Source of the DNA: a virus | Taxonomy: Duplodnaviria > Heunggongvirae > Uroviricota > Caudoviricetes | Strand: one strand, 5' to 3' | Length of the DNA: 64,000 bases | IMG/VR virus record: IMGVR_UViG_2568526312_000010 | Shown here: piece by piece, positions 45,001 through 51,000 of the stretch | Layout: each line of letters begins with the position of its first letter | Position numbering within the stretch: position 1 is the stretch's first letter | Position numbers: made by a program

Positions 45001-48000
45001 TTTTCAGCAAAATATTCTGCTTATCTGTCGATTCCCCAGCACGCCAGCGCGCTCTCCTGGTCACGACGGGATACCTGACCGTAACAGTTATTTGAGCGAA
45101 TACGGCAGTCCCTGCCACCGTCCTTAATCCACCAGCGAATCGCTTCGCAGGCACCTTTTCGATCTCCTGCATTAATCCGTCTGTAAAACGTCGACGGGAA
45201 ACACTTACCGGGGCCAATGTTGTACGGACAGAATGACGCGATCCCCGCTTTCTGGGGTTCGGTCAGCGGCACTCTGATGTTTTTCTCCACCCATGCCAGC
45301 GCCTTATCACGCTCAATGGCGTTAACCCGGTCGCATTTTTCCTTCGACAGCTTCATGCCAGGAATAACAGGCTTACCATCCCCCCGGGTGGCTCCACGGC
45401 AGATGGTCCAGATACCCGCACCATCACGGTATGCTGTGGTGTGGTTACCTTCCTTTTCATCCAGAAACTGGTCGAGGATTTCAGGCGCAGACGCCCCTGC
45501 ACCAATCAGCGCCAGAACGGCAGCCGACAGGCCGTATCTGATTTTTGCGTTCATGGATATTTATCAGGGTTTATCGATTTCAAATCCCTGGATATGTTAA
45601 GTCTTCAGGCCAGCGGTGGAGTCTTCAGAGAACCCGTAATTATTCCCGGTAGTTTTCCTCTGTAGGTTATCAACACATCCTGCGCCTCTAAAATTACGGG
45701 ACGCTTTTCCGGTAACGGACCATCCCCTTCACATAACCCGGCAGCAACATCCATGAAAAACTGCTTCGCCTGCTTTTTCGCCTCAGCTTCGTAAAACTCC
45801 AGCGTGGCACCTTCAGTACGGTCAAGACTAATCGCCACATCTGGCAACAACAGTGACGGATACCCACCAATTTCCGGTGCCACAGTAACAGTAATCTTAT
45901 CCGGGTAATTATTTATCCCTTTAACAACCAGTTCGTATTTTTTCTTCATCACTTTACTCTCCCCGCGCCGCCTTACGCCGGTCTTCTTTAATCTTGAAAT
46001 ACAGGTTCGTCAGATATGTCAGCAGCCCAAACAGCAGACTCCCCAGCACGCCTATCGCCACCCACTGGGACGGAGAGACTTTGTCCAGCAGCTGCAGTAA
46101 CCAGTATCCCGTCCCCACCGCTGACGTGGTGTATGACACACCCGTTGTGATTTTTTCCATCTGATGTATGTCTCCGTCACCGCCGACAGAAAATGAAAGT
46201 AAAGAAAAACAAAAAAGCCGCCAGTGTCACCCACTGACGGCCAACGCCGGGAGCCGTGATTATGGCATTCAGGCTCTGCTAAAAATGCCAGATAACATTC
46301 CGGCCACCCCCTGATTCAGGTTATAAATGACACAATATCTTGACAACATCCGTCACTGTCTGTCAGAAAATGTACTGCCATATAGAAGCAACATGTGAAG
46401 TACATCTATCCTTTTGAGCCAGCACCTCTCCACCGAAAGTCAGTGCTGGCTGTTTTTTTCCTTAATAAAGCATCTGTAACTGAAACAATCCGCATATTGA
46501 TAATATATTGACAGGCATCATTGCTGTCTGTGAAAAATAAGTCTCTACAAACATATAAGGCCTTTTAGCCAGCGTCTTCTTTCAGGTCAGTCGCTGGCTC
46601 TTTTTTTATTATGCTGCCGGTGCATTTATCTCCAGCACCAGACTTTCTATCTCAACGCCATACGCTGCATTTTTTGTAACATCCGTCAGCGTCAGCGCAT
46701 TCAGTCCCAGTGTCAGACTGTCTTTTATAACCTGGAATGCCGGGCCAGCCACTCCATTCAGTTTCGGAGTAACCGTGGCACTGCCGGCGGTGAACACCAG
46801 CTCCAGCGTCTGCCAGTCGTTACCGTAATCGCCGAACTCCCCCAGCTTCGTGTTTCCGGCTTTCCTGTGATGCATCAGATTCACTCTGCCGTCAGTGGTC
46901 TGAGTAAAGTACGACATCAGGAACGGATTACCGGTACCCGTCATCGCCACACCATCAGGAACGGGAGCATCCGTATACAGATAAATCCCCAGCCCGAACT
47001 GATTGTTGGTCAGCGCGCCTGACAGGCGGAACTTACAGGTCAGTCTGCCGCCCTGTGTCAGCAGGGTAATTGCGTCATCCACCGGATGCGTCAGGGACCA
47101 GGTTTTATTGCTCTGCCTGGTGATCTTAAATACACCATCTGACAACTGAATTCCGCCATCCTTAATGCTCCAGCCCTGCGCAGCAGCCTCTCCGGCTGCC
47201 GGCAGCAGGGAGATTGTGCGAACGGACGTATCTGCAGACGGACCCGATGGCGTGTTGCCGCCGGGCGAGGGTTTGATTTCCGGTGCCTTACCACTGATGA
47301 AGGCTGAGGTGCGCCCGGCTGCGTTCAGAATAGCGGTTGCCAGACGCTCCGGAATAATGCTCCTGCGCGCCCATGAACTGAAATGTGTCGGGCGGTTTGA
47401 TGATACCTGGTTTCCATTCGTTCTCGATGCCGCACCGTAATATCCTGATGCCGGAATATCCGGATCTTCTGCCGGCGCGTTAGTGGCGGTATTGACGCCG
47501 TTACCGTCTGTCATGAAGGGCACAAAATAAACGCCCTCACTCTCCCTGTTTTTATACCCGCCGTACACGGTGTCGTACTGGGTAGCGTATGTATTTTTCC
47601 AGTAATACGTCGTGTCACCACAAATCCACGGCACATCTGCAGCACTGCCACCATGGCACTGCGCGTTAAACACGGAGAGGTCAGCACGAAACTGTGCCAG
47701 CATGGCTGTAAACAGCGCAGGTTGCTGTGCGTGGGTGGCGGCGCTCATGTCAAACTCTCCCTGCATCCAGCAGACGGCCAGCAGAACGTTTTTGGGATTT
47801 TTCTGCAATGCCGCTTTTGTGCGGGAAATCAGATCCTGATATAACGGCTTGCCCACCCCCCAGCGTGCCGAATCCTGGCTGGCCCCCGTGGACTCGCTGA
47901 ATGTCCCCTCCGCGCCCTGGGTAAATGCCGAACCACCACGACAGCATGGTACCAGCAGGATCCCCGCGTTATTCGGGATATACGGGAGCAGTTTTTTGGC

Positions 48001-51000
48001 AATATGTAACCCCTGGCCGACACAGCCGTACTGCCCTTTGCTCAGGTCTGCCTTCGGATGATTCAGCGTACTCATATCCTGCACATCATGCAGGCAGTGG
48101 TCGGCCGGAATAATATCGTTATATCTGCAGGCAGCCCCACCCGGCGTCACTGTACTGCGGCGCGCCAGCTGTTTAATGCGCGGATCCGGAGCATCGTATG
48201 AATCCGGCAGCGGAAGCCCTTCACCGTAAGCCATGGCATTGGACTGCCCGGCCAGTACGATGACGTAGTACCAATCCGGCTCAGTTGCACCACTGACCAC
48301 CACATCACCTTCTGCTGTAATCGCCTGCATCAGGGTATAAGGGGTTATGGCCACCGGACTACCAAACGGCTGCCAGCCCTCTTTCAGTTTGTGTGTCAGC
48401 TTTTCCGCAAGGTCTGACGGCGACGCCGCCCTGACAACATCATAATGTTTAATCGACATCGAATTTCTCCCGTGTACAGGAACAGAGTTAAAAAGCCGGA
48501 ACCGGAATCAAATCACAGGATGACCATCTGCCAGTGGCTGGTCGTAAAAAAAAGGCCGCGCCATGCGCAGCCGGAAATAAAGGGATAACGATGATAGTTT
48601 GAGAAAAACAGAAATAACACTTTTGTGGCAAAGCATGGTGCCGGGTGCCTCCCGGTGAATTCAGTACCAGCACCTGAATCCGCGATTATCCCATATACCT
48701 TCTTGCTGATCGCCCCTCCGCACAGGGGGATTCACCATGCAGAAGTGTTTTTAATAAACAGCAAACAAAAAAATCAAGCATTATGCAGGCTGTTTCTTTT
48801 TATCACCGGCCACAGCAATACCACAATGCCGCAGACCAGCACCCCATCCGCCAGCACCGACATGATTCTGCTGGTGAAATCCACCATCACCACCAGAAAC
48901 AGCAGGAGTGCAGCCACAGTCAGGCGCAGTTTTACCGTCACAGGTGATTCTCCAGACGAAGACCCAGAACACCGGCAATCTCTTCCAGCACCTTGCGCTC
49001 TTCCGGCTCAATTTCGCCGTCTGCCTCCGCAATGGCCACCGCCACATCCAGCACATCTTCCGCTTCACGCGTATCGTGTTTCACATCCTCGATCTCACGT
49101 AACGCCGCACGACGACCAGTTTTAAAGTTCGTATCCAGCTGACCGATAATGGTTGCGCTAATCGCATTAATTTCTGACGTAAACGCGGACAGCGCAGGCT
49201 GATTACGCAGTACCTGTTCGATCTTCGCTTTCTCGGATGCCTCACATTCACCATCTGCACAGGCCACCAGGTATGCGGCGTTAATCACCACCTGTGCCAG
49301 ATCGCGTTTTTCAAACTTTTTAATTTCCGTTGCCGCTCTGCGGGCTTTTTTTACCAAAAATACCAAACATCGTGACGTTCCTTTGGGTGGGTGAGCCAAC
49401 GCCCGGGAGCGATCTGCCCACAGAGAAAGTCACACTGACCACTCCGTAAGCTCCCCCCCCCGAAAGGCTCTGTGGTTGGTATGTGCCGGGCGTGGCGCAG
49501 ATACAAAAAAGGCCCGCAAAAGCGAGCCGGGAAAATAAGTGTGGCGCGTTGTACTGGAGTCGAACCAGTGACCGATTGCTTAGAAGGCAATTGCTCTGTC
49601 CTGCTGAGCTAAAAACGCAGAATACCGATAATGGACCGCCATCGGAGACTCGAACCCCGCGAAACCAGCTTCGAAGGCTGGCGTTCTATCCCGATGAGCT
49701 AATGGCGGTATGTGATGGTGGCCCTTGCTGGATTTGAACCAGCGGCCTGGCGATTATGAGTCGCTCGCTCTCACCACTGAGCTAAAGGGCCGGGCGCAGG
49801 ATAATAACGTTACGAAATCAATGTTGCAAGCATTCAAGAATCACCTGGTTAAAAATTACCCTTACTTCCTCCACCAGCGCATTCACCATGTCTATCCGAG
49901 ATAAGTGGCACAAAAAAACCCGCTTGTGGGCGGGTTTTGTTTGCTTTTGCCATCACGTACAAAATCGGCAAAATATCAGATTTGCATGAAATATATGCCT
50001 TTCAATCTACTTTTGCAACACTTTGCTTTGAAAATGCCGCCTTTTGTTTTGAACGCGTTCTCATTACAAACAATAAAGCCTCACTATCCAGTCGGTGAAA
50101 AATGTGTTTCATTGCAACCCAGTGACGAGTAAATGTTTTGGACCAGTTTTTAGTTGTCACTCCCACCAGTAATGCCAGCTCCTTGTATTCATAACCTTCC
50201 CCACCAAAAAGTTCTGCTTTTACTGCCTGCGCCGCCAGCCAGATTAATTTTTTCAGGCGTTCCTGCGTTTTCCCTGCAATTTTTCTGGTACCGGATTGAG
50301 TATTAAATTCATTCCACGCCCACTGTGTTATCGCGATCTGATATTCCCAACAAATACTCCCGCTGTAACACCACAACAACCAGGCTTTATGATGTTCTTC
50401 AAGAGACAGAACAGCCCGCCGCCACGATGATGTCGAAAACTCAACCGGACTGACCAGAGGAATTGACGTCACCTTCGCCAGCGATTGCTTTCCCGGGATT
50501 GGTGGATTATCCCGCGTTATCATTTTTCCAGTCACTTCATCGCGGTACCGGATTTTTTTTCGCCTGTAACGCCCTGTATCGAACATGGCATTCTCCTGCC
50601 AGGCTTCAAGCTGACCTTTTGTTGCCCCACTCAAATCAGCGGTGGCGATAATGAGCTGCTCACGCACAAACTGTAAATAGTGGTTATTCATGCGCACTCC
50701 AGTTCTGTGATTTTTATCCCCAGCCGCTCACCAGGAACGAGCTGACCGCGCACAATATTGATTTCATCAAACTGCTCGTCGTCTATGAGAAGTCCGGCAT
50801 GCGTCAGCACATCCAGTGGTGCTTTCAGGATATTGTCCAGGTCACGACGGCGCTTATCCGGTGGCTCTGCAATAATCTTTATCACCAGCCTTCCGGACAG
50901 GTTTAATTTCAGCCGCTGCTGGCGAACAATAAGTGCCACATCCCGGCGATAACGCTCACCGGCTTTTGATACAAAATATGTGCTGCCACGACGTCGCCAG

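Follow-up and report, generated by a model that had tools for sequence, protein, structure and literature searches.

We analysed a 64,000-nucleotide (nt) stretch of viral DNA (Duplodnaviria; Heunggongvirae; Uroviricota; Caudoviricetes; IMG/VR record IMGVR_UViG_2568526312_000010), referred to at its full length as the window. We found that the interval in which Shiga toxin (Stx) phages carry stxAB is filled here by an overlapping gene pair, tciA-tciB, which encodes a TerB-family protein and a short DUF3927 peptide and which homology identifies as the lambdoid-prophage counterpart of a known, named module of phage P1. The window is Escherichia coli O157:H7 prophage DNA: bases 48480-49540 (1,061 nt) show 100% identity with FRIK944 and many other O157 chromosomes. 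DNA like this segment was present in 2,837 of 5,426 complete E. coli genomes, at a median of two places per genome, which puts the pair among the commonest accessory modules of E. coli prophages: more than half of the complete genomes have it, frequently more than once.

The pair corresponds to the P1 tciA-tciB module

A previous sequence-only reading of the window had described a TerB-like gene coupled to a 56-amino-acid (aa) membrane peptide. The coupling was borne out, the TGA stop of tciA overlapping the GTG start of tciB as GTGA at 48941-48938. The implied novelty of the pair was not: both genes are already named tciA and tciB in P1 and in phage JLK-2012, and RefSeq labels the O157 products 'TerB family' and 'DUF3927 family'. 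P1 gene annotations were taken from the GenBank record (AF234173), which names tciA and tciB 'by homology'. JLK-2012 is annotated under those names in the order Q, three tRNAs (Asn, Thr, Gly), tciA, tciB, yjhS, S-R-Rz. The P1 tciA-tciB(-tciC) genes and the window pair agree in families and order (first a TerB-family protein of 141-143 aa, then a DUF3927 peptide of 50-55 aa), with overlapping stop and start codons and nearby tRNA genes in both; the window proteins share 40% identity with P1 TciA and 50% with P1 TciB. P1 has the pair in its C1-repressed ban operon, where a third small gene, tciC, accompanies it and there is no structured leader, whereas the window pair lies in the late operon (its dependence on Q being inferred), behind a leader, and is followed by the small RNA STnc100 instead of tciC and trnI. 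No tciC was found after window tciB, where STnc100 follows directly; tciC is annotated only in P1, and we regard it as accessory rather than core. A TerB-family gene followed on the same strand by an overlapping or abutting DUF3927 gene was found in the window and also in P1, D6, JLK-2012, Fostie, Pollock and SP-076.

A domain search confirmed that TciA belongs to the TerB family. Pfam TerB (PF05099) matched residues 41-148 of the 153-aa open reading frame (ORF; 7.7e-14, 52.4 bits against a cut-off of 24.4), and PHROG 632 ('tellurite resistance', category 'moron, auxiliary metabolic gene and host takeover') matched at 2e-65. A profile of TciA and 17 relatives, searched against the Protein Data Bank (PDB), aligned query positions 12-137 with positions 18-144 of Klebsiella TerB (2jxu; 3.5e-14). 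The protein thus matched TerB and not a known phage morphogenesis protein; a match of the latter kind was what the earlier reading had named as its refutation. NCBIfam gave only sub-threshold DjlA/YmfL similarity for the TerB-like protein and no match for the peptide or the esterase encoded downstream. An AlphaFold2 model of an intact allele (P0008; predicted local distance difference score 88, predicted template-modelling score 0.82) has six helices, and its top Foldseek match in the PDB was 2h5n, annotated as of unknown function (probability 1.00, template-modelling score 0.53-0.61); we take 2h5n (PG1108) to have a TerB-like fold. The nuclear magnetic resonance model 2jxu was not top-ranked by Foldseek, and the relation to TerB is drawn from the sequence-profile match. 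The model depicts TciA as a small all-helical protein of TerB fold. Two A-D-G...E acidic motifs (D38, G39, E45 and D116, G117, E123) are invariant or nearly so in our alignment A1 and are thought to bind metal, and the intact N-terminus is hydrophobic-basic (MFGIFKKK).

TerB of the ter cluster (terZABCDEF; 2jxu) is, like TciA, a single-domain, all-helical protein of the same length and family with conserved ADG..E motifs. The ter protein has the multi-pass membrane protein TerC as its reported partner, whereas the partner proposed for TciA is the 55-aa TciB. Furthermore, terB stands with terC, terD, terE, terZ and terA, none of which occurs at the window locus, where the neighbours are tRNAs, tciB, STnc100 and the esterase gene; and tciA, unlike the terB of the ter cluster, is phage-borne and probably expressed late in lytic growth.

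The peptide ORF is real, and its 56 codons include the stop, so that TciB is 55 aa long. It matched DUF3927 (PF13064) over profile positions 2-50 of 53 (3.3e-17, 62.6 bits against a cut-off of 25) and PHROG 1470, 'TciB-like inhibition of cell division or resistance to colicin' (5.6e-30). Its hydropathy profile has two hydrophobic segments, at about residues 5-20 and 26-47, with DFTSR between them; these fit a predicted hairpin of two transmembrane segments, in agreement with the earlier description. The conserved core, LLFLVVxVDFTS(K/R)xMSxLADGVLV, is kept at all compared loci except those of the jumbo phages. The family is narrow: a profile of the peptide retrieved 112 clusters (50% identity) among 1.84 billion representatives. 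Nearly all of these are stand-alone peptides, and the few long matches look like frameshifts or chimeras. The proportion of nonsynonymous differences (pN) in tciB is far below that of synonymous differences (pS), as in Fostie versus Pollock (pN 0.20, pS 0.96), and the ratio of the corresponding rates (dN/dS) is 0.09-0.35 where estimable. These values indicate that tciB is under purifying selection, and the peptide ORF is indeed conserved in homologous regions.

The coupling was compared in lambdoid prophages of Escherichia, Pantoea, Franconibacter, Pseudescherichia and Buttiauxella, in the phages Fostie, Klebsiella 5 LV-2017, P1 and D6 and a Klebsiella phage-plasmid, in the virulent N4-like phages Pollock and SP-076, and in the jumbo phages Asesino and pSal-SNUABM-04. 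At every one of these loci an ORF of 50-60 aa with two hydrophobic segments follows the TerB gene, its start lying at -8, -4, -1, 0 or +3 nt relative to the end of the TerB stop codon. In the phage collection, a relative of the TerB-like protein is encoded by 131 records, including P1, and the peptide ORF is retained in 88 of 96 distinct TerB contexts. A pattern search of genome contigs with narrow peptide patterns yielded 10 loci, which serve as a sample of diversity, not of prevalence. Identities to the window TerB and TciB proteins were 95% and 69% in JLK-2012, 66% and 31% in Asesino, 40% and 61% in Fostie, and 30% and 57% in Pollock. Where TerB identity falls to 30-40%, that of the peptide remains at 50-70%. 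The two proteins therefore evolve at unlinked rates, which points to mosaic exchange together with strong constraint on the centre of the peptide.

Four apparent TerB-DUF3927 fusions (P0014, P0060, P0248 and P0289), considered as Rosetta-stone links, proved to be frameshifted or chimeric read-throughs. In the Pseudomonas phages AF (L102, 2411-2632) and Ebordelon (L106, 2434-2637), TerB is paired with a different protein of 67-73 aa with one transmembrane segment. This small protein has its transmembrane segment at the N-terminus and a conserved C..YG.QTERET.Y..FVGCMV motif and does not match Pfam; by analogy, it may be another membrane partner of TerB.

The pair fills the interval of the stx cargo

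The features of the locus, with the methods that placed them, are as follows (minus strand, -).

50697-50002 (-): Q, late antiterminator (Pfam Phage_antiter_Q, 7e-92; RefSeq start 50691 on identical DNA)
50018-49990 (-): pR'-like promoter (consensus scan and sequence reading)
49938-49912 (-): tR'-like terminator hairpin (consensus scan and sequence reading)
49829-49801 (-): pT-like promoter, upstream of the tRNAs (promoter scan)
49791-49716 (-): tRNA-Ile2(CAT), ileZ type (ARAGORN, Rfam tRNA, RefSeq tRNA-Ile)
49708-49632 (-): tRNA-Arg(TCG), argN type (ARAGORN, Rfam tRNA, RefSeq tRNA-Arg)
49618-49542 (-): tRNA-Arg(TCT), argO type (ARAGORN, Rfam tRNA, RefSeq tRNA-Arg)
49528-49511 (-): intrinsic terminator after argO, left border of the cargo slot (terminator scan)
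49499-49371 (-): structured 5' leader of tciA (covariance model R1, 135.3 bits)
49370-49320 (-): out-of-frame remnant of the original tciA start, ATG 49370 to TAA, 16 codons (sequence)
49366-48938 (-): tciA, TerB family, 142 aa from TTG 49366 (WP_001303509.1; Pfam TerB, PHROG 632, PDB 2jxu, RefSeq)
48941-48774 (-): tciB, DUF3927 peptide, 55 aa (Pfam DUF3927, PHROG 1470)
48769-48597 (-): STnc100/PasD-type prophage small RNA, right border of the cargo slot (Rfam RF02076, 101.8 bits, gathering score 47)
48572-48554 (-): intrinsic terminator before the esterase gene (terminator scan)
48459-46609 (-): NanS-p-type sialate O-acetylesterase, 616 aa (Pfam; PDB 3pt5, 6yp6)
46160-43560 (-): lysis cassette overall (Pfam, ORF list)
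46160-45954 (-): S21-type holin, 68 aa (Pfam)
45952-45605 (-): DUF1327 gene (Pfam)
45554-45021 (-): lysozyme, R (Pfam)
44882-44751 (-): second leader RNA of the family, diverged, which ends at the ant-like gene's ATG (R1, 34.6 bits, E 3e-7)
44750-44181 (-): ant-like gene (Pfam, ORF list)
44027-43560 (-): Rz with Rz1 inside (Pfam, ORF list)
343-217 and 216-1 (-): neighbouring prophage, second copy: intact leader, then the first 72 tciA codons from an in-frame ATG (sequence; R1, 144.8 bits)

It had been proposed that this is the late-operon layout in which Stx phages carry their toxin genes, and the window agrees feature by feature with annotated 933W, whose order is Q, pR', qut, terminators, pT, ileZ, argN, argO, terminator, stx2A, stx2B, SASA esterase, S, R, ant, Rz. 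The window pR' and tR' match the annotated pR'/qut/terminator of 933W in position. On the other side, Rfam places STnc100 directly after stx2B in 933W and directly after tciB in JLK-2012, and in the window STnc100 begins five bases past the tciB stop (48774). Homology between the Stx1 phage YYZ-2008 and the window sets in again at 48754, some 95 nt past stx1B and just beyond the window tciB stop. The stx2AB and stx1AB cargo of 933W and YYZ-2008 and the tciA-tciB pair thus have the same left flank (Q, pR'/tR', ileZ-argN-argO and terminator) and the same right flank (STnc100, NanS-p esterase and S-R-ant-Rz), and by this alignment of flanks the pair fills exactly the stxAB interval, from the argO terminator to STnc100. 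The cargo itself differs, since the gene products are unrelated and tciA has a structured leader whereas stx has none. For the genomics of enterohaemorrhagic E. coli (EHEC), the comparison fixes the left border of the stx-equivalent slot at the argO terminator and its right border at STnc100. PasD/STnc100 has been described upstream of the esterase (bioRxiv 10.64898/2026.05.13.724894). AsxR, which lies antisense to STnc100 in 933W, was not detected in the window by the Rfam scan.

The nanS-p-like esterase was likewise recognised correctly in the earlier reading. It matches DUF1737 (2e-15), SASA (1.4e-12) and DUF6645 (4.4e-18) in Pfam; residues 59-379 correspond to NanS (PDB 3pt5, 2e-122) and residues 421-613 to the C-terminal domain of NanS-p (PDB 6yp6, 2e-29). 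EHEC NanS-p esterases (6yp6; NanS/YjhS, 3pt5) have the same three-part architecture and the same place downstream of the cargo slot, and these matches identify the window protein as an ordinary NanS-p allele. RefSeq gives WP_024748470.1 for the identical DNA in FRIK944, and the diversity of the esterase gene beside stx2a has been described previously (PMC10462455).

In lambdoid phages the pair precedes the lysis genes, with the argO terminator before it and STnc100 after it, and tRNA genes are frequent neighbours elsewhere too: a same-strand tRNA lies within 1 kb upstream in 61 of 90 distinct contexts, and none in 27. Those beside the pair are Asn, Thr and Ile in P1, Asn, Thr and Gly in JLK-2012 and Cys in the jumbo phages (L005, L098), and tRNAs are also near the pair in D6. 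A functional tie to the tRNAs was considered and set aside in view of the 27 contexts without one and of the varying identities (Arg, Ile2, Gly, Cys, Ser, Thr, Val); we therefore attribute the proximity to a shared insertion slot, not to function. We also observed a GGA(A/G)GCACC(C/A)GGCACC motif just upstream of tciA in P1 (locus L003, about 2940-2990) and D6 (L099); it resembles GGGAGGCACCCGGCACC within the window STnc100 region (about 48655-48635), and neither P1 nor D6 gave an Rfam match.

A structured leader RNA precedes tciA and other cargo genes

Conservation is stronger in the approximately 130 nt from the argO terminator to the tciA start, a stretch that the sequence-only reading had passed over, than in the coding sequence. 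Fostie and Pantoea septica, whose TerB proteins share 44%, have almost the same leader, and its core also accompanies tciA in jumbo Erwinia and Salmonella phages. We built a covariance model, R1, from 13 sequences, and it matched the window at 343-214 (144.8 bits), 49499-49368 (135.3 bits) and 44882-44748 (34.6 bits, E 3e-7); the last is the version before ant, which is also present in 933W and YYZ-2008. There was no copy before stx in 933W or YYZ-2008 and none in P1, D6 or 434.

Covariation was tested on 52 distinct sequences, with 500 shuffles and slid pairing partners as controls. Three helices emerged: H0 (CGCYCG : YGRGCG), with changes on both sides in 6 of 6 pairs; H1 (CCACAGAG : CUCUGUGG), in 5 of 8; and H2 (GGGUGAGCCA : UGGCUCACCC), in 4 of 10. 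H2 lies outside the structure to which the leader alignment was fitted. H1 is replaced by CCGUAGAG : CUCUACGG in the jumbo phages and by GAAAGU : ACUUUC in another subtype. Overall 94.9% of cells were paired, and 17 of 29 pairs changed on both sides, compared with 5.7 +/- 1.5 after shuffling (0 of 500 shuffles reached the observed count) and 4-6 with slid partners. G-U pairs are frequent, so that the element is strand-specific and the structure therefore resides in RNA. This covariation identifies the leader as a structured RNA whose base pairs are kept by compensatory changes.

H1 and H2 cross, which therefore implies either a pseudoknot or an alternation between the two. The leader ends in a Shine-Dalgarno sequence, AAAGGAA, and in single-sequence folds of several members an invariant CCUUU just 5' of H2 pairs with its AAAGG; in these folds, that pairing would be incompatible with H1. 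In length (about 130 nt, ending at the start codon), in its three covarying helices, two of them crossing (H1 x H2), and in the possible sequestering and freeing of the Shine-Dalgarno sequence by CCUUU, the tciA leader resembles translational riboswitches and other structured 5' leaders. Unlike riboswitches, it precedes many unrelated cargo genes instead of one functional class, follows an intrinsic terminator and has no Rfam family.

In further scans, the late regions of enterobacterial phages had the leader in front of 15 or more cargo families that are unrelated to one another, including TerB, a GT2-like protein, a protein of 246-284 aa that is weakly similar to tail-tip proteins, antirepressors of two kinds, Rha and a solute-binding protein, and in all non-jumbo examples inspected an intrinsic terminator precedes it. 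The 4,227 models of Rfam 15 gave no match at E <= 0.01 to 49371-49499 or 44751-44882, and a search of the intact leader copy with lax filters gave only weak, terminator-like partial matches upstream of the leader. The small RNAs AgvB, AsxR, HnrS and Pas were considered as identities for the leader and rejected, these being short; moreover, the Rfam models of AgvB and AsxR gave no match in the window, and AsxR occurs in 933W only downstream of stx2B. We suggest, at only just short of an even chance, that the leader represents a class of cis-acting RNA not described before, whose role is to gate or insulate the translation of accessory genes, confining it to the right transcript or time. Should this be borne out, phage cargo genes, ant of Stx phages among them, would be accompanied by a widespread new RNA with a regulatory or insulating role, which would be relevant to the expression of morons.

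The tciA start is frameshifted in this copy

The sequence-only reading had noticed that the 5' ends of the two TerB copies in the window differ by 1 nt in frame, and had set its upper coordinate at 49370. The shift is real, its consequence having gone unremarked along with STnc100 and the leader; an ATG does stand at 49370, outside the TerB frame. The start region reads ATG TTT GGT ATT TTT GGT AAA AAA AGC CCG ... TAA, so that ATG 49370 opens an ORF of 16 codons (MFGIFGKKSPQSGNGN, then the stop), and the TerB frame is +1 relative to it and starts, according to RefSeq/PGAP, at TTG 49366. The ATG is out of frame because of a run of seven A residues (A7) at 49352-49346. At the left edge of the window, the other copy (216-1) has ATG TTT GGA ATC TTC AAA AAG AAA ACC CGC, in frame, and related prophages (loci L049 and L068) and JLK-2012 have GGT AAA AAA GCC (A6), also in frame and encoding MFGIFGKKARRAA; the window allele is therefore a +1 insertion (A6 to A7).

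The A7 allele accounts for 12 of 96 distinct TerB contexts and about 50 fetched loci. Many of its IMG/VR copies carry an extra in-frame stop near codon 45 of tciA (L017-L045 and others; TerB match 6001-6426, ORF break at 6132/6135), which suggests ongoing pseudogenisation. The leader is altered as well: in the window copy the 5' arm of H2 (GGGGGTGAGC / GGGGGUGAGC) is replaced by poly-G (G9-AGC; G run at 49461-49453). The G run varies from about 6 to 13 among prophage copies and differs by one G between otherwise identical O157 genomes. The poly-G and A7 runs travel together as one allele lineage.

From its position 4 nt behind a competing ATG, the TTG start should translate weakly, and the output of TciA from this copy is probably reduced. 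How far the reduction goes decides whether the locus is a decaying, functionally dead remnant that makes little or no TciA and hence little coupled TciB, a view that is almost as likely to be right as wrong. The displaced ATG, the TTG as the only in-frame start close to the Shine-Dalgarno sequence, the exchange of an H2 arm for poly-G of variable length, the nonsense codon in many copies of the same allele and the existence of an in-frame A6 ancestor all agree with it. Yet neither the 142-codon frame nor the tciB ORF is disrupted here, many O157 genomes carry the locus unchanged (100% conserved), and RefSeq does not flag the gene as a pseudogene. In addition, initiation at the TTG would give an N-terminus (MVFLVKKARR) that is still hydrophobic-basic, like MFGIFKKK, and low-level +1 slippage on A7 is conceivable. 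In either case, the O157 allele studied here is a frameshifted variant.

Function of the pair

Turning from this copy to the module in general, we tentatively favour, at somewhat less than even probability, the reading that the pair is the lambdoid version of the P1 module, a two-gene unit that phages use during lytic growth at the inner membrane. It is present in strictly virulent phage types (N4-like and jumbo), the order Q, pair, holin/endolysin is kept in three lambdoid lineages whose TerB proteins are only 40% identical, and the copies resident in prophages decay; a lytic inner-membrane function is therefore favoured. Virulent carriage and resident-prophage decay redirect the question from a benefit to the host towards a membrane function in the lytic cycle. 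Peptides of TciA have been detected in P1 virion preparations (PMC9024508), so the protein is made in lytic growth, and TerB reportedly interacts with TerC, an integral membrane protein (Turkovicova 2016, cited in PMC11003894).

Terminators bracket the window pair, and the promoter scan found no sigma-70-like promoter at 49511-49370; late, Q-dependent expression is therefore plausible. From the identity, coupling, conservation and position of the pair we infer its timing, membrane association and physiological effect as follows. Transcription would depend entirely on read-through of tR' and the argO terminator by Q-modified RNA polymerase, and TciB would be made by translational coupling to tciA and insert as a hairpin in the inner membrane. 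By analogy with TerB and TerC, TciA would act at the cytoplasmic face of the membrane, as a helical bundle that is acidic and probably binds metal. Together they might buffer membrane or divalent-cation stress in the infected cell until lysis, and so keep late development from being ended early by depolarisation, colicins or a superinfecting phage. Tellurite resistance as such would not be the function.

A number of observations weigh against this proposal. It has been reported that knock-down of tciA, tciB and tciC in P1 by CRISPR interference leaves plaquing normal (PMC10695390), and any benefit would therefore be conditional; about half of one subgroup of P1-like phage-plasmids has lost the operon (PMC9603915). 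The P1 pair belongs to the C1-controlled ban operon, not to a late operon. The two genes are not always together: Vibrio phage D505 has a TerB gene without an adjacent small hydrophobic ORF, and phage 434 (locus L007, 2138-3370) has tciB without a TerB gene in the same slot between Q and the esterase. No genuine TerB-TciB fusion was found among the 1.84 billion representatives. The positive-inside rule would put the best-conserved part of TciB (DFTS..ADG) in the periplasm or within the membrane, which disagrees with a simple picture of TciB as an anchor for TciA. Finally, the literature searched held no experiment on the function of TciA or TciB, and the 'tellurite/colicin/cell division' labels on the pair rest on homology alone. 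In 434, tciB stands behind an unrelated membrane protein of 247 aa and before one of 62 aa, and Pfam matches neither.

Those labels suggest a different role, that of a lysogenic-conversion moron expressed from the prophage, which would protect the lysogen from tellurite or oxidative stress, colicins or other phages in the manner of the plasmid ter operon. The family name and the PHROG category agree with this, and ter operons have been implicated in tellurite, colicin and phage resistance (PMC9603915; PMC8123226). The pair occupies the classic moron site, which it shares with stx, its DNA is very common (2,837 of 5,426 E. coli genomes), and the pT-like promoter before the tRNAs could give leaky read-through. 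We nevertheless consider the role unlikely. The N4-like and jumbo phages that carry the pair do not lysogenise, no promoter-like site was found between the argO terminator and tciA, and resident copies decay (12 of 96 contexts frameshifted, many with the extra nonsense codon), which is unexpected for a gene benefiting the lysogen. Tellurite resistance is not expected from TerB alone, because other Te-resistance genes are stated to be necessary for activity (PMC8421299), and the usual 'tellurite resistance' label of the pair is probably misleading.

The position before the lysis cassette raises the possibility of a lysis-timing regulator, in which TciB would modulate the triggering of a class II holin, as an antiholin or stabiliser of membrane potential, with TciA as its cytoplasmic regulator. 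That place is kept in E. coli lambdoid phages, Fostie and Klebsiella 5 LV-2017 despite 40% TerB identity, the two hydrophobic segments resemble those of class II holins such as the adjoining 68-aa S21-type holin, and the pinholin phage 434 keeps tciB at the same site. However, the pair is away from lysis genes in P1 and D6 (ban operon), in N4-like phages (beside dUTPase and replication genes) and in jumbo phages (tRNA region); the Pfam and PHROG scans of TciB returned only DUF3927 and 'TciB-like' and no holin similarity; and the P1 knock-downs plaque normally. We judge this explanation improbable.

Least probable of all is an anti-defence or superinfection-exclusion module that counters abortive-infection or membrane-acting defence, or blocks the entry of competing DNA in the lytic cycle, for although the pair occurs in many unrelated phage types and hypervariable accessory regions, often within 1 kb of a tRNA (61 of 90 contexts), and the ter operon itself has been linked to phage inhibition (PMC9603915), the PADLOC models gave nothing above noise, the tRNA linkage is not obligatory (none in 27 of 90) and is explained by the shared insertion slot, and the literature searched gave no experimental hint. 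Membership of the pair in a defence system was rejected on the same scan, whose only match was at the noise level of 13.9 bits.

Other features of the window

The prophage at the left edge of the window differs from the main locus upstream of its leader. Only two tRNAs, Ile2(CAT) and Arg(TCT), were recognised there (386-638, minus strand), with a degenerate stretch of about 100 nt at the place expected for argN. Directly upstream of these tRNAs, at the place expected for Q, lies a gene for an AraC-family regulator (667-1380, minus strand; 237 aa, HTH_AraC). Between the two prophage regions, ORFs of 133, 115 and 512 aa occupy 16147-18480 on the plus strand; their sizes and spacing are like those of tnpA, tnpB and the transposase gene of the IS66-family element ISEc8, which they may represent. 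In FRIK944, an annotated copy of ISEc8 interrupts the DUF1327 gene of the same prophage, and that gene is intact in the window.

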